Origin: Gemmatimonadota bacterium
GTDB taxonomy: Bacteria > Gemmatimonadota > Gemmatimonadetes > Gemmatimonadales > GWC2-71-9
Direction: 5' to 3'
Assembly (NCBI GenBank): GCA_031367105.1
Contig: JANLPG010000030.1
Span: 16,972-80,971, forward strand
Length of the DNA: 64,000 bases
Shown here: positions 11,357-23,970 of the stretch, in pieces
How the letters are laid out: the number at the start of each line of letters is the position of its first letter
Numbering within the stretch: the first letter of the stretch is position 1
Notes under the pieces: generated by a model
What the model was told of the DNA's origin: nothing
Databases searched by the model: none
The model's input: only the letters and a program-made list of their open reading frames with translations
Program-made: the position numbers and the translations under genes

Positions 11357-11617
11357 TTACTGAGACAGCCGCTTCGGTTCGCCGCCGGTCGGCGCGCCCG
11401 TGGACGACTCCGGTCGTTCACCGTCGATCATCCGCGGTGGGTTTCGCTCGCTGTCCGGAGGGTTGAGCATGGCGTCCTGGGTATCGGTCAACGACCGCTT
11501 GAACTCGCGGATCCCCTTGCCCATCGACGAGCCGATCTCGGGCAGGCGCTTTGCTCCAAAGACGAGCAAGGCGACCACCAGCAGGATCATGATTTCGCTG
11601 AAGCCGAGATTTGGCAT
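11357..11617 (-). CDS. tatA: Twin-arginine translocase TatA/E subunit
   Basis: GFSEIMILLVVALLVFGAKRLPEIGSSMGKGIREFK. Confidence 0.96.
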   Translation of the reverse strand: MPNLGFSEIMILLVVALLVFGAKRLPEIGSSMGKGIREFKRSLTDTQDAMLNPPDSERNPPRMIDGERPESSTGAPTGGEPKRLSQ

Positions 11618-14902: not shown

Positions 14903-15748
14903 CTACCAGTTCACCCGGATCAGCTCAGGATTTCCCGGATCGCTTTGAAAGGCCCAGTCGAGCAGGAGGTAGCCGGAGCCTGCGAAAACGACCCGAAGTG
15001 CCCCATAGCGCTTGAAGCCGTCCGGCCCCGTCATCTGGACTACATAGCCCCAACCCGGAGTGGCCTCGAGCCCGCTCCGCCCGAAGCCGCTCAGCGGGGC
15101 GACATCGATCTCCTGAAGCGACCCCACTGGCGCCTGGCCGTAGCGGATGATTTCGGTTCCGCTGCGCTGCGGTACAAAAAAGAAGCGACCAGCAGCGTCA
15201 CGCTGGACCGTCAGATCGACATCGCCCGCTCCGCTCATCACCCAACCGAGTTCGGAACGAATCGCCCCACCGTTCCCGTCGAGATCGCGCCAGAAGCGAA
15301 AGCCGGCACGGGCATCGTCCGCCTGACGGGCGTAGACGGCGACGCTGGTCGCCTCGTAGCGGGGAGTGTCCTCGCGGATCGGCGATCGATCGGAGTCGAC
15401 CCCGTCAGTGCTCTCCGCAACGATGCTGAAGCAGCGGGGAACGCCGTTGGTGAGTGCCCCTGCCACGAAATCCGGGGCGACGGTCGTCCCCTCCATCACC
15501 CAGGGCGTGAGGCAGAGATCACGATCCAGATCATAGGGTGACGAATAGACGCGATAGCGGAGAAACCTCCCGGGCGCGGCACGATAGGGTTCGTCGGTCC
15601 AGTGCAGACCGATCGCTCCATCCAGCGATGCGCTGGTGAGCTGGCTCGGCCGTGGTAGTGGCCCACCGCCGGGAAGCGTCGGGGACGCCTGACAACCAAC
15701 GAGTATCGAGAGACCGAGGATGCCGAAGATCAACGACCGGAAAGCCAT
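14903..15748 (-). CDS. Hypothetical lipoprotein with FN3-like beta domain
   Basis: MAFRSLIFGILGLSILVGC lipobox after a GGAG RBS; P..LT....I.L.W...YRVY...L.NG...F.I.A FN3-like pattern. Confidence 0.6.
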   Translation of the reverse strand: MAFRSLIFGILGLSILVGCQASPTLPGGGPLPRPSQLTSASLDGAIGLHWTDEPYRAAPGRFLRYRVYSSPYDLDRDLCLTPWVMEGTTVAPDFVAGALTNGVPRCFSIVAESTDGVDSDRSPIREDTPRYEATSVAVYARQADDARAGFRFWRDLDGNGGAIRSELGWVMSGAGDVDLTVQRDAAGRFFFVPQRSGTEIIRYGQAPVGSLQEIDVAPLSGFGRSGLEATPGWGYVVQMTGPDGFKRYGALRVVFAGSGYLLLDWAFQSDPGNPELIRVNW

Positions 15749-15878
15749 ACGACGCTCCACGCGCGGGGATGCGTGCAGCAAAGGCAGGGCTCGTGCCGTT
15801 GGCATCGGCGCTGTTCGCGGGTGACCGCAGCCGCAGGCGCCTCGCTGGAGGGACGGCTGCGTCCCGCAAGGAGGACAG

Positions 15879-18800
15879 TCAGCGTGGTCGAAGCGTGGTC
15901 TGGTTGTAGTCGAACTTGACGTCGGGCAGTGGCTTCAGCGTCACTGTGAAGAAGAGGGCGAAGTTGCCGGTGGCGGTCTTGGCGAAGTCGAAGGAGGCCG
16001 TCCAGTCGTGCAGATCCCGCTGCAGGCGGATCTGTTGTGACTCGAACCGGGAGGCAGTGACGTTGTACTGGGTCTGCCAGGACACATTCCACGCCGGAGT
16101 GGGTGAGAAGGATGTGTTCAACCCGATATTGCTCTGGTTCCCTGTCACCAGATTCAGGGGCTGGAGGAAAATGCTGTTCGGATCGGTGTTGATCGAGCCG
16201 ACGGTATTTCCCGTCGGGCGCTTCCGCTGCAAGGAGTACGTCACCGAGGCCGTGAAGCCCCTGCCACTCAGTCCGGCCAGTGCGTCCGACGAGTTGAACG
16301 AGCCGGGTCGGAACCGCCGGGAGGTACTGCCGAAGTAACTCGCCGCCGGCGGAGGAGTAGTGTCGCGCTGTGCTCTCGGGTCAACTTTCCTGGCAAGGCC
16401 GAGCAGGACAGCGAGAGAGCGAAAGGTTCCGCCGCTCAGTGAGAAGTTCGCCTGCACGTTGGAGAGAAACGGCGAGAATTTCGCCGTGTCGGTGCCCACC
16501 TGCCCCTGCCAGAGGTCGTGCGTCAGCGAGAGCTGGAATCCCCGGATCAGATCGCTCTGCAACGAGTTGGTGATCGCCGGCGTAGTCCAGCCGGTTCGTC
16601 CCGGGAGCTTTGCCTGTTCGAAGTCGTAGGCCAGCTGGGATGTCGTCAACTGGAGCAGCGCGATTTTCCGCCAGTTCTTGTCGTCGGTGTTCGTGTCGCC
16701 GGCAACGGGTCGGAGCTTGCCGGAAAGCGATTGCGACAGCGACAGCGACGCCGTCAGATTCGCCGCGGTTTCGCGCGGGATGGCGCTGCCGGCAGATCCG
16801 GAGAGCGCCCGGGCGTACTCCTCGGAGAGCAGCGCTTTCGGCGAGTATTGCAGGTTGAAGAGCGGCTGGATATTGTGTCGGAACCGTACCACCGGGCCGA
16901 TCCCGCGATTGATGAAGCCGAAGAGCTGCGGTCCGATGGCGAGGCTCAACTGCAGCTTTTTCCCCTGTTGCACCCATTGGCCATTCGTCGCGGCGTTGCG
17001 CAGCAGGAACGGATTGCCGCTGCTGATGTTGGTGATACCCAGCGTTGGCGTAATCTTGAACGTCTGCTGGAACAGGATGGGAAGGTTGATCCCGGTATCC
17101 CAATTCAGGCCGCTCTGGAAGTCCCCTTGCCGGACCGTCGTCACCGTGACGGAGTCGTTCGGGTCCGGCGTGCTCAGATCGGGAATACGCTGGGTCAGGG
17201 TCCGCCGGCCGACGTCCATCCGGTCCTGGTAGGCGACCGTGTTGGCCCAATTGAACCCGCCGATCCGCAGCGGGGTCGTGAGATTCATCGTGGTATTGCG
17301 ACTGCGGGAAGTCGCCACCAGACTGTCGACCCGGCCAGGAAAGACCGCAAACTGTGCCGCGCTGGGCTGGTTGGTTGCCACATCGTTCGTCAAGGTGAAC
17401 GAGGGGGACCAGGTGATGTGCTGCCCGATCCCGAACGGATTCGGTGTCAGGGTCAGTGTCGGCAGCGACATCCGCACGCTGCCATCACTCAACGTCTGAT
17501 TCCGCGTGCCGCCAAGGGTTGTCGATCCCCAGCGGAAGCGCTTGGTGAGGTTGAGCGAGCTGGTGATCTGCTGGACCGAGCGCAGGGGATCGACCGTGTT
17601 GCCTTGCAGCACGCTGGTGTTGCCGCTGTAGTTGAAGTTCAGCCGCAGCGAAGTGGCATTGTCAAACTGCTGGTTGTGGCCCCACCGGATATTCGTGGAG
17701 CGGCCACCCCCGTTCTGGCGCTCCTGATCGATGGCGAAATCGCCATCAACGAATCGGTCGCGCCAGCGATAGCGGAACTGCCCGCCGTAGCGCATATACC
17801 GATTGGCGTACCAGTCGAGCCGCACCGTCGCATCGAGGTAGTCGTTCGGTGCCCAGTAATAGCCGATGTTGGTGACCTGGCGGTTGTAACTTCGCGTCGG
17901 GCGGACGATGTCGTTGAAACCGAAGTTGGGGATCAGGATCCCCGACCGCCTGCCGAGCTTGGTGTCCTGAAAGAGGAAGGGCAGCCAGACAATCGGCACA
18001 TCGCGGACGTAAAGCACGGCGGGTCGCGCGACCAGTACCGACTGTGACACCCACTTCACCTGCCCCGACTGAAAGTGGTAGTGCGGCTCGGGAAGGTCGC
18101 ACGATGTGAATTCGCTGTGCGCGGCATACAGGCGTTTGCCGGTGGAGTCCACTGCGAGGTTGCCGCGCAGGAACCAGTTGGCACCACCATCGTCGAAGGT
18201 GGTGAGGGCCTCGCCGATGACCCCTCGCTCCTGACAGGTGTCGAACTTCATCTCCCGGCCGACCAGAATCTTCCCGCCCCTTCCCCCCTCGAACATCCGC
18301 GGCTCCCCTTTGGCGGCAAGCAGGCAGCGCGCATCGTTGTAACGGATCTCCTCCGCCTCGAGGATGCTGGTGTCGCGGGAGGTGGCAGCCCGTCCCCCGA
18401 GAAACAGCCCCTCGCCATCCGGGAGCAGGATCGCCGAGTCGCCGAGGAAACGGGTCACCGCGAAGCCCTCTCGTTTGAGGAGCAGTTGCATCACGGAGTC
18501 TGGTTCGCTGAATTTGCGTCGGGGAGCGGTGGGAATGCCGAGGCGCTTGGCAGTGGAGGAGTCAATCGCCCGCGTCCCCTGACCGGGGAGCGATCGGGCG
18601 CGGCCAGAATCGGCCGCCGGCGGACGTAGCGGCGGGTTCTGGGCGTGCAGGTCCCGCGGCCCCCCTGCCAGCAGCAGGAAGAGGAGGATGGCCCCCGCCA
18701 CCTCTGCCGCTTTCCGGCGTCGCCTCTGCACCAGGAACGCCCCGATCACCCCCAGCTCATACAGCGCGATCAGCAGCAGCGAGCAGACGATCATCGACAG

Positions 18801-19445
18801 GACGTCGGTGCCCGGGGAGAGGATGGCGCCCGCGATGCTGTTAAGCAGGATAGCGTAGCGACGAAACGCGCTGAAGCGCTTGGCGTCCATCACGCCGATC
18901 CAGGAGAGCAGCGTCATGATCAGTGGCAGCTCGAACGAGATCCCCACCGCCAGGATCACCTGAATGACGAACGAAAAATACTCGTTGAAGGTGATCTGGT
19001 TGACGAACTCATCGGCCTGAAACGAGAGCAGAAACTTGAGTGACAGCGGCACACCGTAGATCCAGCCCAGCCACGCGCCGAACAGGAAGAGCACCAGTCC
19101 CATGGCGAGGGCCGGCATCATCGCCTTCTTCTCGCGCTCGTAGAGCGCTGGCGAGAGGAACGCCCAGAGCTGATAGAGAATGACCGGTGAGGCGAGCACC
19201 AGCCCGGCCACGACGCCAAGCTTGAGGACGATCATCACCTGTTCGGTGGGCGCCAGGATGGTGAGCTTGCCGCCGGGAAGGTACGGTGCGATCGGGACCT
19301 TGAGGAACGCGACCGCGTTGTATTTGCTGACCAGCCAGAGCCCGATGCCCACACCAACGAACACTGCGATCAGTGCACGAATGATGCGCCCGCGAAGTTC
19401 CTCGAGGTGGTCGAGGAACGGCATCTCGCCGGCAGGATTATCCAT
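15879..19445 (-). CDS. tatC: TatC fused to an LptD-like LPS-assembly outer-membrane protein
   Basis: aa 1-~240 TatC (EMPFLDHLEELRGRII, YQLWAFLSPALYERE, FELP, LYELG); from aa ~269 LptD-like (FTSCDLPEPHYHF, RRSGILIPNFG, GYYWAPNDYLDAT, alternating beta strands, RDLHDW); single open frame. Confidence 0.88.
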   Translation of the reverse strand: MDNPAGEMPFLDHLEELRGRIIRALIAVFVGVGIGLWLVSKYNAVAFLKVPIAPYLPGGKLTILAPTEQVMIVLKLGVVAGLVLASPVILYQLWAFLSPALYEREKKAMMPALAMGLVLFLFGAWLGWIYGVPLSLKFLLSFQADEFVNQITFNEYFSFVIQVILAVGISFELPLIMTLLSWIGVMDAKRFSAFRRYAILLNSIAGAILSPGTDVLSMIVCSLLLIALYELGVIGAFLVQRRRRKAAEVAGAILLFLLLAGGPRDLHAQNPPLRPPAADSGRARSLPGQGTRAIDSSTAKRLGIPTAPRRKFSEPDSVMQLLLKREGFAVTRFLGDSAILLPDGEGLFLGGRAATSRDTSILEAEEIRYNDARCLLAAKGEPRMFEGGRGGKILVGREMKFDTCQERGVIGEALTTFDDGGANWFLRGNLAVDSTGKRLYAAHSEFTSCDLPEPHYHFQSGQVKWVSQSVLVARPAVLYVRDVPIVWLPFLFQDTKLGRRSGILIPNFGFNDIVRPTRSYNRQVTNIGYYWAPNDYLDATVRLDWYANRYMRYGGQFRYRWRDRFVDGDFAIDQERQNGGGRSTNIRWGHNQQFDNATSLRLNFNYSGNTSVLQGNTVDPLRSVQQITSSLNLTKRFRWGSTTLGGTRNQTLSDGSVRMSLPTLTLTPNPFGIGQHITWSPSFTLTNDVATNQPSAAQFAVFPGRVDSLVATSRSRNTTMNLTTPLRIGGFNWANTVAYQDRMDVGRRTLTQRIPDLSTPDPNDSVTVTTVRQGDFQSGLNWDTGINLPILFQQTFKITPTLGITNISSGNPFLLRNAATNGQWVQQGKKLQLSLAIGPQLFGFINRGIGPVVRFRHNIQPLFNLQYSPKALLSEEYARALSGSAGSAIPRETAANLTASLSLSQSLSGKLRPVAGDTNTDDKNWRKIALLQLTTSQLAYDFEQAKLPGRTGWTTPAITNSLQSDLIRGFQLSLTHDLWQGQVGTDTAKFSPFLSNVQANFSLSGGTFRSLAVLLGLARKVDPRAQRDTTPPPAASYFGSTSRRFRPGSFNSSDALAGLSGRGFTASVTYSLQRKRPTGNTVGSINTDPNSIFLQPLNLVTGNQSNIGLNTSFSPTPAWNVSWQTQYNVTASRFESQQIRLQRDLHDWTASFDFAKTATGNFALFFTVTLKPLPDVKFDYNQTTLRPR

Positions 19446-19453
19446 CGAGACGG

Positions 19454-20227
19454 CTACGGGAGTGCGCGCAACGCATCGCGGGCGAGTTTCGCCTCGTCGC
19501 TCTGCGAATAGCGATCGACCACCTGCTGGTAGTACGCTCGCGCAGCCGTGCGGTCCTGTCGGCGCTCCGCCAGCTTCCCGAGCTTGAACAGCGCCGTTGG
19601 TGCCCGGGACGACGTGGGGTACTTCGACACCACGGCGCCGTAGTAGACGCGTGCCGAGTCGGGGACGACAGGGTCGAACGTGTCGGCCAGCCCATACGTG
19701 GCGTCGGGCGCGAGGGGCGACGTCGGGTAAAGTTCCAGCAGTCGCCGGAATCCGATCCGAGCCGATGCCACGGCGCCCTGCTGGTTCTGACCCCGCGCGG
19801 CCATATAGATCGCGTCGGCCGAAGGGGCGTTGGTCACAGCGGGGAGCCGAGTGGAATCACCGGCCGGCGTGAGGCCGGCCGGCGGTTCCGCACCGCGTAC
19901 CTCGAGCTGGTTTCGCAACTCGCTCAGCCGTCGCTGACTCTGGCCCGAGAGCTCCTGCAGCGCGAGCAGGGAGCGCCGCACTTCGGTGAACTCCGACTGA
20001 TTGTCGCGGGCGCCCCGCTCGAGGGCACGGGACAGCGATCCCAGCGAATCGATCCCGCGCTGTTGCAACGCGATGATTCGCGTCAGCTCTGCTGCGCGCG
20101 CCGAATCGGCACGTGCCTGGGACCGTTCGAGCACGGCAACCTGCGTCTCGACCCGCCGGACCTGGCCTGGGGTGGCACACGCCGCCGCCAGGAGCAGCGT
20201 GAGCGACGTCGCGACGCCGGCCCGCAT
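19454..20227 (-). CDS. cpoB: Tol-Pal system protein CpoB/YbgF (lipoprotein, coiled coil + TPR)
   Basis: LAAAC lipobox, coiled coil, YPTSPLAPDA / YPTSSRAPTALFKLG TPRs; directly after pal. Confidence 0.85.
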   Translation of the reverse strand: MRAGVATSLTLLLAAACATPGQVRRVETQVAVLERSQARADSARAAELTRIIALQQRGIDSLGSLSRALERGARDNQSEFTEVRRSLLALQELSGQSQRRLSELRNQLEVRGAEPPAGLTPAGDSTRLPAVTNAPSADAIYMAARGQNQQGAVASARIGFRRLLELYPTSPLAPDATYGLADTFDPVVPDSARVYYGAVVSKYPTSSRAPTALFKLGKLAERRQDRTAARAYYQQVVDRYSQSDEAKLARDALRALP

Positions 20228-20802
20228 CAGCGGGGTGCCACCAGCGACTGCGCGCCGGCGATGGCCTCGAACTCATCTCGGCGATTCTTGGCATACGCCG
20301 CTTCGTTGGGCGACGGGTCGACGGGAACCTCCCGGCCGAGCGACGCCACTTCGATGCGGGACCCATCTACGCCGAGGCGAGTCAGGTAGTCCTTCGCCGC
20401 GATCGCACGCTTCATCCCGAGCGCCAGGTTGTATTCGTCGGATCCACGCTCGTCCGCGTGGCCAGTCACCCGGATCCGCAGCGCGGGATTCGCCTTGAGG
20501 ATCGCAGCTTTCCGATCGAGGCGGGCAGTGTCGTCCGGGTTGACGGCGAACTGGTCGTAATCGAAGTGGATCGTTTCGGCCAGCTGATTCACCAGCGCCG
20601 CGCGATCGGCTTCCCGACGCGCGGCCTCCGCACGGGCCATCGAGTCGGCATTGGCGGGCCGAACCAGCGGGGTCGGAGTGCTCGAGGCGGGGACGGAGCC
20701 TGCCACCGGTGCTGGAGTGGTATTCGGATCGGCCTTCTTGCCACAGGCTCCGACCACGGTCGTCAGCCCGAGCAGGGCAACGACAAGGGCACGCTGGGTC
20801 AC
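20227..20802 (-). CDS. pal: Peptidoglycan-associated lipoprotein Pal (OmpA C-terminal domain)
   Basis: GTG start after GGAGG, VVGAC lipobox, IHFDYD, GHADERGSDEYNLALG.KRA, KNRRDEF. Confidence 0.93.
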   Translation of the reverse strand: MTQRALVVALLGLTTVVGACGKKADPNTTPAPVAGSVPASSTPTPLVRPANADSMARAEAARREADRAALVNQLAETIHFDYDQFAVNPDDTARLDRKAAILKANPALRIRVTGHADERGSDEYNLALGMKRAIAAKDYLTRLGVDGSRIEVASLGREVPVDPSPNEAAYAKNRRDEFEAIAGAQSLVAPR

Positions 20803-20815
20803 GAGGTCCTCCACA

Positions 20816-22141
20816 TCAAGGGTTAGTGCCGCGCAATATAGGCGACCAGGCAGGCAGGCGGGCGCCCCCCGGGGTCGGCAATTGGCGCGAGGTTCCGGTT
20901 TCCAGGTCGACGATCCAGAGCTGGTCACGACCGGTCCGATTTGAGCGGAAAACCAGGTGCCGGGAATCTGCCGCCCAACTCGGGTCTTCGTTCTGGCGGC
21001 CCGTTGACGTCTGCTGTTTGGCGGGCCGCCCGGTGCCGACCTGCCAGGTGAAGAGCTGTCGGCCGCCGGCTGCATCCCGACCGAACGCGACCGTGGTGCC
21101 GTCGGGCGACCAGTCGGGGGCATAGGACGCCCCCGTTTCGCCGGCGTCGAACGGCACCAGCACCGCCTGGTCCGTCCCGTCGGCATCCATCGCATAGATC
21201 TGCGGCGAGCCGGCCCGGGTCGACATAAAGGCAATCCGTCGTCCGTCGGGCGAATACGTCGGCGTCAGGTTGGCGGCGTACTTTCCGGTGGTCGTCAGCC
21301 GGTGCGCGCAGCACATCCGGGTCACGTCTGCCTCGAACAGATCCGTCCCCTCTTCGGCGACACGACCGAAGACGATCTTGCTGCCGTCGGGCGAGAACGA
21401 CGCACCATTGTTGGTACCCGAGACCGTGGTCGGTACGGTGACACGCGTCCCGGTTGCCAGCGATTGAATGATCAGCGCACCGACGTAATCCTTGATTTCG
21501 GTGAAGGCGAACCGGGTGCCGTCGGGATGCCACGCCGGTGAAACCACCAGCCCGCCCGGGCGGCTGACCCGCACCAGATTCTGACCGTCGGCATCAATCC
21601 GCCAGATGCCGTTGTCGCGGCGGGTTCCGATTTCGTCGGCCTTGAAGAGGATCCGGGTCGCCGCGATGCCAATGCCGCCATTGATCCAGGTCACCAGCTC
21701 GTCGCTGACCCGGTGGATCGCAAGTCGGCTCTCACCCACCCCCGCGGGGTCGAGCGGGCGCACTCCCTGCTGACGCAGCTGGCCCGCCGCGATATCGTAG
21801 AGCTTGACCTCGACTCCGGCACCGATCCGCCGCAGCTCGACCGCCCAGGCTACGCCGAGCGGCTTCAGTGTCGCCGGCACCAGCGGCGCCGTGAGCCGGC
21901 CAAGGGAATCGGGGAGGAAGGCCATCTCGTACCGATCCGAAAATGCCAAGTCGCGCTCGACGATGCGACGGATCGAGTCGAGCCCGGGCCCCGCCATTAC
22001 CAGCACGCCCGGGCGAGCGCCGGCCGTATAGTTGATCCCCAACCGGATCCGCTCAATGTCCTGTGCGCCGGCAGGCGAGGCGCGACCCACGAGCGCCAGC
22101 GTCGCGAGGGCCGCAAGCTGGAGGAACGGGACCGGCCTCAC
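20816..22141 (-). CDS. tolB: TolB-like beta-propeller protein
   Basis: Signal peptide, PD40 repeats (PAWHPDG, SFSPDG, PTYSPDG, PDWSPDG, PSWAAD, PAWSP); tol-pal synteny. Confidence 0.9.
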   Translation of the reverse strand: MRPVPFLQLAALATLALVGRASPAGAQDIERIRLGINYTAGARPGVLVMAGPGLDSIRRIVERDLAFSDRYEMAFLPDSLGRLTAPLVPATLKPLGVAWAVELRRIGAGVEVKLYDIAAGQLRQQGVRPLDPAGVGESRLAIHRVSDELVTWINGGIGIAATRILFKADEIGTRRDNGIWRIDADGQNLVRVSRPGGLVVSPAWHPDGTRFAFTEIKDYVGALIIQSLATGTRVTVPTTVSGTNNGASFSPDGSKIVFGRVAEEGTDLFEADVTRMCCAHRLTTTGKYAANLTPTYSPDGRRIAFMSTRAGSPQIYAMDADGTDQAVLVPFDAGETGASYAPDWSPDGTTVAFGRDAAGGRQLFTWQVGTGRPAKQQTSTGRQNEDPSWAADSRHLVFRSNRTGRDQLWIVDLETGTSRQLPTPGGARLPAWSPILRGTNP

Positions 22142-22815
22142 GGGCGGCGGGTCGGGGCGAAGTAGAATGCAATCGGCAGCTGGTCGCCCGCGAATCCGGA
22201 CGGCAGCGGCCCGAAGGCCCGCACTCGCCCAGCCGCCTCCACTGCGCCGAGCGCGGTGAGATCGAAGTCATCGCGTCCGGAGGGCGCCGATACGACCAGA
22301 TCCGTGACTGAACCATCGCGGAGAATCACGAACGACACCTCGGCGTGCAGATTGGTTCGCGCCAGTGGCTGCTGCCACCGCAGATAAATTTGGTTGGTGA
22401 TCGACCGCAGGTACTCGGGATACGGGAACTGAAGTCCCGCCTGTCGCAACGTCACCACGTCCTGGCCGGTACTCGGCGTCGTCGATGGAATCGGCGTCAC
22501 TGGCGATTGGGTGACCGGCGCCTGCTCCGCCACCTTCACCCGATCGGGCGGGTTGGACTTCATCGGCTCCGGCTTCACCGCTTTCGGCGCCAGCAGCGGT
22601 GCCGTTTCGGCCTCGGCGACGGGCGTCGCTTCGGCGGCGGACCGTCGGGGGGCCTCGGACGGTGCCGGTGCCGCCACCAACTCCACCGCATAGACGATCG
22701 GCGGACGGGTCGGCGCACGCTGCGCGACCAGCACGAGCGCCACGATCACGAGCCCGTGAACCAAGCTCGTGCCTGCCAGTCCAGCGGGGAGCGACGATGT
22801 GCGCGTGGCGCTCAC
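22138..22815 (-). CDS. tolA: TolA/TonB-like energy transducer
   Basis: TM helix with S..H motif (SLVHG), Pro-rich linker, C-terminal F.ILRDGSV....SG..DFD..A..AV....FGPLP. Confidence 0.8.
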   Translation of the reverse strand: MSATRTSSLPAGLAGTSLVHGLVIVALVLVAQRAPTRPPIVYAVELVAAPAPSEAPRRSAAEATPVAEAETAPLLAPKAVKPEPMKSNPPDRVKVAEQAPVTQSPVTPIPSTTPSTGQDVVTLRQAGLQFPYPEYLRSITNQIYLRWQQPLARTNLHAEVSFVILRDGSVTDLVVSAPSGRDDFDLTALGAVEAAGRVRAFGPLPSGFAGDQLPIAFYFAPTRRP

Positions 22816-23240
22816 GGGGGCGGGGCGGGCTCAGTGACGAGCCCCACCGAGCGGATCCCGGATGCGCTGACGACACCGAGTACGCGCGCGATCTCCCCAT
22901 ACCGCGTCGCCTGATCGCCCCGCACGTAGACGACCTCCGGGCGCTGCTGGCTGACCAGCAGCCTGAAGGCGGCGCGAAACTGGTCGTAGGAGTACTGCTG
23001 CTTGTCGATCGAGATCCGGCCGTTCCGGTCGACGGTCACGTTGACCGCCTTGCTCGCCGTGATCGGGCGGGAGGACGCCTTCGGGAGCCGCACCTGGATT
23101 CCGCCCTGCATCATCGGCGCCGTGACCATAAAGATGATTAACAGCACCAGCACCACGTCGACGAGGTTGATGATGTTGACCTCGGCGTTGAGGCGTCGCC
23201 GGTTGCGTCGTCCGCGCCCGAGTGCGCCGAGCCCGGCCAT
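22812..23240 (-). CDS. tolR: TolR/ExbD
   Basis: EVNIINLVDVVLVLLIIFMVTAP, VRLP.A, VRGD...YG; start at ATG 23240. Confidence 0.9.
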   Translation of the reverse strand: MAGLGALGRGRRNRRRLNAEVNIINLVDVVLVLLIIFMVTAPMMQGGIQVRLPKASSRPITASKAVNVTVDRNGRISIDKQQYSYDQFRAAFRLLVSQQRPEVVYVRGDQATRYGEIARVLGVVSASGIRSVGLVTEPAPPP

Positions 23241-23241
23241 C

Positions 23242-23970
23242 CTACAGCCGTCCCTCACGTCCCAGCGAGCCGATGGTCGCCTGCGCGAGCCGCTCCAGTT
23301 CCCCCTCGAATCGCTCGGTGCGGGAGGTGAAGATGTTGTACGCCACCACCGCCGGGATGGCAGCACCCAGCCCCGCAGCGGTCGCGATCAGCGCATCGGC
23401 AATCCCGGGTGCCACGGCGGCGAGATTACTGCTCCCCTCGACGCTCAGGCCGTTGAACGACTTCATGATGCCGAGCACCGTGCCGAAAAGGCCGAGCAGC
23501 GGAGCGGTCGAGCCGATCGTGGCGAGCCACGGAATCATCCGACCCGAATGCTCCGCCTCTTCGCGCACCCGGGTATCGAGCGTCATCGTCAGGGCCTCGA
23601 GCTGGGTCAGCGAGAGCCCGGTGCGCGAGACGTTGGCCCGCTCCATCGCACCGTGGAGGTCGGCGATAAAAGCGGTCGAGCTCTGGACGATGGCGGCATA
23701 AGGCGAATCAGCGAGGCGCGAGGCGGCATCGGACCGCTCATCAACCGTTCGGCTTCTGGCGGTGGCATCCTCGTAGGCGGCGCGGGCGCGAGCGAGTCGA
23801 CGGAACTCCCACCACTTCGCGCCGATGATATACCAGGAAAGCAGCGAAGCGAGCGCACAGATCACCAGGACGGCCGATGTCTCAGTGCTCGCCGACAGAA
23901 TCAGATGGAGGAGCCCAGGGACCGATGGGCCGGCAGCGTCTTGTATCAACGGACCGTTCCTTCGAACCAT
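23242..23970 (-). CDS. tolQ: TolQ/ExbB proton channel
   Basis: WLATIGSTAPLLGLFGTVLGIM, VAPGIADALIATAAGLGAAIPAVVAYN; exact start uncertain. Confidence 0.93.
   Translation of the reverse strand: MVRRNGPLIQDAAGPSVPGLLHLILSASTETSAVLVICALASLLSWYIIGAKWWEFRRLARARAAYEDATARSRTVDERSDAASRLADSPYAAIVQSSTAFIADLHGAMERANVSRTGLSLTQLEALTMTLDTRVREEAEHSGRMIPWLATIGSTAPLLGLFGTVLGIMKSFNGLSVEGSSNLAAVAPGIADALIATAAGLGAAIPAVVAYNIFTSRTERFEGELERLAQATIGSLGREGRL

Follow-up and report, generated by a model that had tools for sequence, protein, structure and literature searches.

Our analyses show that tatC and lptD, the genes of an inner-membrane and an outer-membrane protein, are joined in a single open reading frame (ORF) in a Gemmatimonadota bacterium (GenBank assembly GCA_031367105.1). 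The ORF lies on a 64,000-nucleotide stretch of contig JANLPG010000030.1 (positions 16,972 to 80,971), hereafter called the window, to which all coordinates refer. This tatC::lptD ORF is a real, family-wide gene fusion, and its product is probably a polyprotein that signal peptidase I cuts between A268 and Q269, at the end of a signal peptide located between the two halves. An earlier note on this DNA had proposed such an internal, probably cleavable signal peptide joining TatC to LptD; our results support this idea and locate the linker exactly where it had been placed, from the GTG codon of V239 (18731-18729) to the CAG codon of Q269 (18641-18639), although the cleavage itself is something that we infer. 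From one end of the gene to the other, its parts are the following:

15879..19445, minus strand: whole fused tatC::lptD ORF, 1188 amino acids plus stop, a single frame in relatives as well
18729..19445, minus strand: TatC part, amino acids 1-239, six transmembrane (TM) helices, with PF00902 and TIGR00945 above cut-off and a fold match
18729..18731, minus strand: in-frame GTG (V239), an alternative start that is not conserved
18711..18728, minus strand: basic patch QRRRRK, amino acids 240-245, the cytoplasmic patch that follows the sixth TM helix (TM6) of TatC and doubles as n-region of the signal peptide
18660..18710, minus strand: hydrophobic h-region, amino acids 246-262, a predicted seventh N-in/C-out helix, homologous to the h-region of the LptD signal peptides of relatives with split genes
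18642..18659, minus strand: c-region PRDLHA, amino acids 263-268, with P at -6, L at -3 and A at -1
18639..18641, minus strand: Q269, predicted first residue of mature LptD, with cleavage predicted between 18642 and 18641
18459..18638, minus strand: variable Pro-rich spacer, then a conserved motif that contains two short helices and precedes the jellyroll, amino acids 270-329, as seen in the model and the alignment
18006..18458, minus strand: LptA/LptD_N-like beta-jellyroll, amino acids ~330-480, from the strands of the model and a match to LptA 2r1a
15918..17948, minus strand: LptD-like outer-membrane beta-barrel, amino acids ~500-1176, from PF19838, Foldseek and VIA

The frame contains no stop from its start to its natural end, and its two halves are recognized independently by sequence profiles. 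The first matches the Pfam family TatC (PF00902) over residues 12-221 (E 2.3e-58, 197.9 bits for a cut-off of 25.1) and passes the NCBIfam tatC equivalog TIGR00945 (192.9 bits, cut-off 132.7). The second matches LptD_2 (PF19838) over residues 472-944 (E 9.1e-35, 120.6 bits for a cut-off of 22.5), a family that, in a control search, also matches Bacteroides thetaiotaomicron. In profile searches of the organism's own genome, which is 96% complete, the canonical LptD family PF04453 found no match, a model that may be insensitive to this lineage, and the scores of the fused protein are far from the thresholds of the NCBIfam LptD equivalogs (29.7 bits vs 683 for NF002997; 29.3 vs 944 for NF003358). 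The fused ORF is both the single TatC and the sole PF19838 match of this genome, where no second LptD-like gene was found and where LpxC and LptF/G are present, implying that both halves should be functional.

Structure prediction recovers the two expected folds. The full-length AlphaFold model (96 sequences, mean predicted local distance difference test (pLDDT) 75.8) consists of a confident TatC (residues 12-240), a low-confidence linker (247-293), a jellyroll (~330-480) and a very large barrel extending to ~1170. Using VIA, the TatC region (residues 12-241) aligns with 4hts (Z 20.1, root-mean-square deviation (rmsd) 3.2, 224 residues aligned) and 4b4a (Z 19.8), the latter also matched by Foldseek with a target-normalised TM-score of 0.78. 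For the C-terminal part, the top-ranking Foldseek matches are LptD structures (8h1s_C, E 3.3e-25; 4q35_A, E 9.1e-25), and VIA recovers LptD with Z 14-17 over residues ~293/500-1176, including 9ia0_A (Z 17.2 over 331-1171). The jellyroll taken separately resembles LptA 2r1a (Z 12.2, rmsd 2.5 over residues 328-450). The protein thus displays the arrangement that characterizes LptD at the fold level, namely a periplasmic beta-jellyroll followed by a very large barrel. Together with the two profile matches, these models bear out the earlier note, which had described a complete TatC and an LptD-type domain in one frame and had made the idea dependent on the C-terminal part modelling as an LptD-like barrel; the motifs that it quoted for this part are indeed present in the translation. 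Between linker and jellyroll, the model places helices at 296-302 and 317-324, with pLDDT <50 for residues 247-293. The spacer is highly variable in length across 96 aligned fused proteins, in which D295, R301, G303, P305, P308, D316, L322 and G327 are nevertheless invariant. Despite the clear structural jellyroll (LptA Z 12.2), the profile LptD_N/LptA (PF03968) has no match genome-wide, and no LptE (PF04390) was recognized by hidden Markov model (HMM) in this 96%-complete genome, although the model may be insensitive to the lineage. Current HMMs probably overlook the LptA and LptC of this lineage as well.

A long frame of this kind might in principle be an assembly or sequencing artefact that removed a stop or introduced a frameshift between two ordinary genes. 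The assembly is fragmented (206 contigs) and a change of one base would suffice to fuse the overlapping genes seen in relatives. We nonetheless consider this practically out of the question, since the fusion recurs at 43-76% identity in relatives. Within the genus, the junction is crossed in one frame without stop in 23 of 25 genomes, the window's included (53-76% identity), the two others being broken by contig ends near the junction. In the family, for which 201 genomes were drawn and the best 150 of 247 matches considered, 148 of these 150 span both halves. Eight of the 150 were flagged as containing an internal stop, never at the junction: in six (G056, G224, G182, G130, G138, G235) it is the natural terminus, and in two (G223, G090) it falls inside the LptD part. 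A word-index protein search gave the same picture, as both Pfam domains are present in every one of the best 120 proteins (the query plus 119 others), which are mostly 1150-1200 amino acids long; the names, where given, are simply 'TatC' of Gemmatimonadales or Gemmatimonadota. The ESM Atlas contains two clusters with this same architecture (104 and 78 members), both labelled Gemmatimonadota. Finally, Logan contigs assembled from the runs of another study, a soil metagenome, cover positions 18300-19100 with 6 substitutions and 0 gaps. Frames of relatives, shared domain pairing and independent contigs concur in refuting an artefact, and they give the answer to the earlier concerns that reads might reveal a stop or frameshift at the junction or that close relatives might all encode two separate genes. 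The two loci with a stop in the LptD part are L047 (G223), with a TAG within the barrel, and L049 (G090), with a TAA within the jellyroll. Each fused gene is intact apart from this single premature stop, which could be a sequencing error or could mark a pseudogene of what appears to be the sole LptD.

The linker between the two halves has the n-h-c architecture of a signal peptide, with small or neutral residues at -3 and -1, although its placement is not N-terminal, as it starts at residue 240 behind six TM helices. Its residues were counted column by column in the alignment of the 96 fused proteins. At the basic end, position 241 is R in 91 and K in 4, and positions 242-245 are mostly R or K; the same arginine patch ends TatC in relatives with split genes. 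At the other end, position +1 (Q269) is Q in 96/96, position -1 (268) is A in 87, G in 8 and S in 1, and position -3 (266) is an allowed residue in 95/96 (A 57, L 28, V 4, G 3, S 2, T 1), with P at -6 (263) in 73/96. The rest of the linker drifts in both length and sequence. Positions -3, -1 and +1 are those read by signal peptidase I, and the alignment shows selection on precisely these positions; the linker is conserved as a signal peptide, which speaks for the earlier note. From the last charged residue to the site, the h- and c-regions together have a median of 21 residues in fused proteins and 18 in unfused ones, a length that, judged from the alignment, is signal-peptide-like rather than anchor-like. 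In L019 (G014), G104 and P0098, a low-complexity, Gly/Asp-rich insert of 20-40 residues separates the arginine patch from the h-region; tolerance of such large inserts would be expected if this loop is cytoplasmic.

The site itself is an ordinary one for this organism. A crude regex screen of N-termini in the window's genome, which encodes two S26 signal peptidase I genes, yielded 188 putative sites, with Q as the commonest +1 residue (68/188, for a Q background of 3.5%) and L as the commonest -3 residue (60/188). Since A|Q is the commonest predicted cleavage site and L the commonest -3 residue genome-wide, LHA|Q conforms to local habit. As an observation in its own right, this crude screen reveals in the window's genome a bias outside Bacteroidota that resembles the Q-rule, whereby signal peptidase I sites expose an N-terminal Gln. 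One study describes this rule as Bacteroidetes-specific, and the word Gemmatimonad does not occur in its main text (PMC5837995); the rule is also treated in another (PMC10653852).

The origin of the linker can be traced by comparing the window's own family (f1) with its sister families in the order (f2 and f3). The tatC and lptD genes of f2, f3 and other classes of the phylum are neighbours but separate. The split TatC ends from a few to ~25 residues past the same arginine patch, and the split LptD opens with an N-terminal n-h-c signal peptide ending in A|Q. Because the LptD of these relatives begins with that very peptide, the internal segment corresponds to the ancestral signal peptide of LptD, and this gene comparison shows that the linker derives from LptD's export signal. 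Of 22 unfused loci, 20 gave a site, with Q at +1 in 20/20 and A (17), S (2) or C (1) at -1; L024 and L053, without a signal peptide by regex, are outside these 20. In 14 of 16 split loci, the stop of tatC touches or overlaps the start of lptD or the following open frame, a typical pattern of translational coupling. In G040 (L020), which is split, a TAG is directly followed by an in-frame GTG start. In three f1 genomes, tatC is absent from the locus and cpoB is directly followed by an lptD that has its own signal peptide.

This ancestral coupling lends some interest to a different explanation of the fused frame, in which LptD would be made mainly from an internal in-frame start as an ordinary precursor, the read-through fusion being a by-product. 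The GTG at 18731, which the earlier note had mentioned as a possible second start, does exist in this genome, just before the arginine patch, and also in several relatives, but it is not conserved among fused relatives as a whole. The V239 column contains I in 28, A in 3 and T in 1 of the 96 proteins, and M occurs anywhere within residues 236-251 in only 12/96. Four of the 19 truly fused loci scanned (L009, L010, L012, L019) have no in-frame ATG, GTG or TTG nearby, and no Shine-Dalgarno-like motif is evident by eye in the 20 bases upstream. We therefore regard predominant internal initiation as very unlikely. Without a stop between the halves, every ribosome on tatC continues into lptD.

The ancestral state, which the sister families retain, was a tatC gene followed by a translationally coupled lptD with its own Sec signal peptide, and loss of the tatC stop and of most of the TatC cytoplasmic tail brought the LptD signal peptide directly behind the arginine patch. 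In the resulting polyprotein, TatC would be inserted N-in/C-in with the arginine patch remaining cytoplasmic, and the h-region would enter the Sec translocon N-in/C-out as a seventh helix, so that the 920-residue LptD part would be threaded into the periplasm. Signal peptidase I would then cut after A268 and release mature LptD, beginning at Q269, for outer-membrane assembly. This would leave a 268-residue TatC with the former signal peptide as its C-terminal helix, unless trimmed later. The orientation in the membrane, the export through Sec, the cut and what becomes of the seventh helix are our inference.

Several points weigh against this cleaved-polyprotein mechanism. Most of a large family has retained the fusion, more stably than one might expect of a purely neutral one. 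In the AlphaFold models, TM6 runs on into the h-region as a single low-confidence helix, with no support for a hairpin; this holds for the full-length model and for a model of residues 1-268 (23 sequences, mean pLDDT 77.6, tail pLDDT 53-65). The combined h- and c-regions of fused proteins are ~3 residues longer than in unfused relatives, which could slow cleavage, and the window protein has L, not A, at -3. Signal-peptide calls were regex-based. As to the invariant Q, the plant-type glutaminyl cyclase (PF05096) was not found in the genome with an HMM that may be insensitive; the other cyclase type was not searched.

Some of these same points would suit a fusion that remains uncleaved or partly cleaved, with a permanent seventh TM helix and LptD tethered through a ~60-residue spacer (residues 269-329), linking both membranes. 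The spacer is modelled as disordered and, fully extended, could roughly span the periplasm by our estimate; the fused h- and c-regions are slightly longer than in unfused relatives; and most of the family has kept the fusion. However, a permanent anchor would have no reason to keep -1 (96/96), -3 (95/96) and a Q at +1 (96/96) amid a drifting linker, the spacer length is very variable, and the same LptD is used by relatives with split or unlinked genes. The history of the fusion is also hard to reconcile with a structural link. A maximum-likelihood tree of the LptD part (quick method, 50 sequences; L047 and L049 were excluded for their internal stops, and L013 because it duplicates the window) implies 6 changes between the fused and the not-fused state, at least 4 of them forced by well-supported branches; the non-fused f1 members were chosen deliberately, such that proportions in this tree are not representative. 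Two of these changes are independent fusions inside f2: both G035 and G286 have a split genome as their sister. LptD also works unattached to TatC in relatives, both in f2 and f3, where it is split, and in the three f1 genomes where it has its own signal peptide. This lability argues against an obligatory physical tether and against a strict need for equal amounts, and we consider a fusion that stays uncleaved or partly cleaved improbable. By contrast, it fits a nearly cost-free change if, as in the cleaved-polyprotein mechanism, the product is cut. It also weakens the earlier proposal that the fusion serves to tie synthesis of both proteins 1:1, since split relatives already overlap stop and start, at least 4-6 switches occurred, and tatC is sometimes unlinked within the family. 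In one of the two f2 fusions, that of G035 (L026 and contig C2), the TatC tail has been retained, and the genome has in addition a second, separate tatC on another contig. To readings other than a cleaved polyprotein, a tether or an internal start, we attribute together a low probability.

Alternatively, although more speculative and in our opinion rather unlikely, the arrangement might have consequences of its own for both export systems. The outer-membrane barrel would routinely be made as C-terminal passenger of TatC and reach Sec co-translationally via TatC targeting, whereas the usual export route of outer-membrane proteins is post-translational. The cleaved TatC would keep its seventh helix beside TM6, the face where the TatA and TatB helices bind, and would constitute a natural 7-TM variant with altered Tat assembly; some uncleaved tether might coexist with it. 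On the packing of a seventh helix on TatC, both models say nothing either way, no membrane being modelled.

The following genes around the fusion are encoded on the same strand:

20227..23970, minus strand: pal, tolB, tolA-like, tolR and tolQ (Pfam OmpA, PD40, TonB_C, ExbD and MotA_ExbB; Pal TIGR02802, E 9.3e-33)
19454..20227, minus strand: ybgF/cpoB-like tetratricopeptide repeat (TPR) gene (TIGR02795, E 1.6e-21, below cut-off), with its stop 8 bases before the start of the fusion
14903..15805, minus strand: lipoprotein-type ORF of 300 amino acids with an LVGC signal, directly downstream of the fusion
11357..11617, minus strand: tatA, the sole TatA/B-family gene found (PF02416, E 5.9e-17), 4.3 kb downstream

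The fusion had been described as closing the tol-pal operon, which is roughly right: the tol-pal genes do lie upstream, but more genes follow on the same strand, with a TPR protein, a polyprenyl synthase and finally tatA beyond the lipoprotein-type ORF. The order tolQ-tolR-tolA-tolB-pal-cpoB-tatC-lptD is conserved (19454-23970 in the window; loci L002-L050). In almost all of the f1, f2 and f3 loci searched by tblastn, a cpoB-like gene precedes tatC or, if tatC is missing, lptD, and the adjacency of tatC and lptD reaches other classes of the phylum. The ORF at 14903-15805 matched no Pfam or NCBIfam family; it occurs downstream of lptD in 9 of 51 loci of other genomes (f1 and f3), a count limited by short flanks. 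As no LptE is recognized, this putative lipoprotein could be a partner of the barrel.

TatC and LptD are each well known, and there is a precedent in bacteria for the processing of internal signal peptides; what is new is that an inner-membrane protein and an outer-membrane barrel are naturally fused throughout a family. Signal peptidase I processing behind six TM helices and the obligatory co-translational export of an outer-membrane protein both find a natural test case here, along with a TatC that may carry an extra helix. The repeated switching between overlapping genes and an in-frame fusion also shows how such fusions can come at almost no cost when the signal peptide is cleavable. A practical consequence is that, with these ~1190-residue proteins annotated simply as 'TatC', the sole LptD of these genomes is hidden from gene-content surveys. 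No description of a TatC-LptD fusion was found in the literature searched (titles and abstracts on TatC, LptD and Gemmatimonadota), and the main text of a survey of TatC diversity contains neither 'fusion' nor 'fused' (PMC3827258).

Among the closest known counterparts are the separate tatC and lptD genes of the sister families, which share the cpoB-tatC-lptD order, the TatC and LptD_2 families and a signal peptide ending in A|Q. They differ by the stop and the TatC tail of 10-25 residues that separate the two genes, the stop often overlapping the next start; in the fusion both are gone and the peptide has become internal. Among proteins of solved structure, proteobacterial LptD (4q35, 5iv9, 8h1s), like the LptD_2 of Bacteroidota, also combines an N-terminal beta-jellyroll with a very large barrel, although sequence identity with the solved structures is of 9-14%, PF04453 and the NCBIfam equivalogs remain below threshold and no LptE is recognized. 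In architecture, the fusion resembles the cytochrome b-c1 polyprotein FbcH of Bradyrhizobium, in which a polytopic inner-membrane protein likewise precedes an internal signal peptide and an exported protein within one bacterial ORF, and whose cleavage by signal peptidase has reportedly been shown. The two products of FbcH, however, belong to one inner-membrane complex, whereas in our case an outer-membrane barrel without known functional link to TatC would be released by a cleavage predicted from the linker. With the Bacteroidetes Q-rule, the fusion would share the exposure of an N-terminal Gln by signal peptidase I; that rule is described as Bacteroidetes-specific, and its counterpart here is predicted from site sequences. 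The predicted fate of the linker has a parallel in the core-E1 junction of hepatitis C virus, a viral system of the eukaryotic endoplasmic reticulum in which, after the signal peptidase cut, the upstream product keeps the signal peptide as C-terminal membrane anchor, as outlined in PMC5402940. There, signal peptide peptidase then trims the anchor; the signal peptide of LptD would stay on TatC as its C-terminal anchor unless it is trimmed later.

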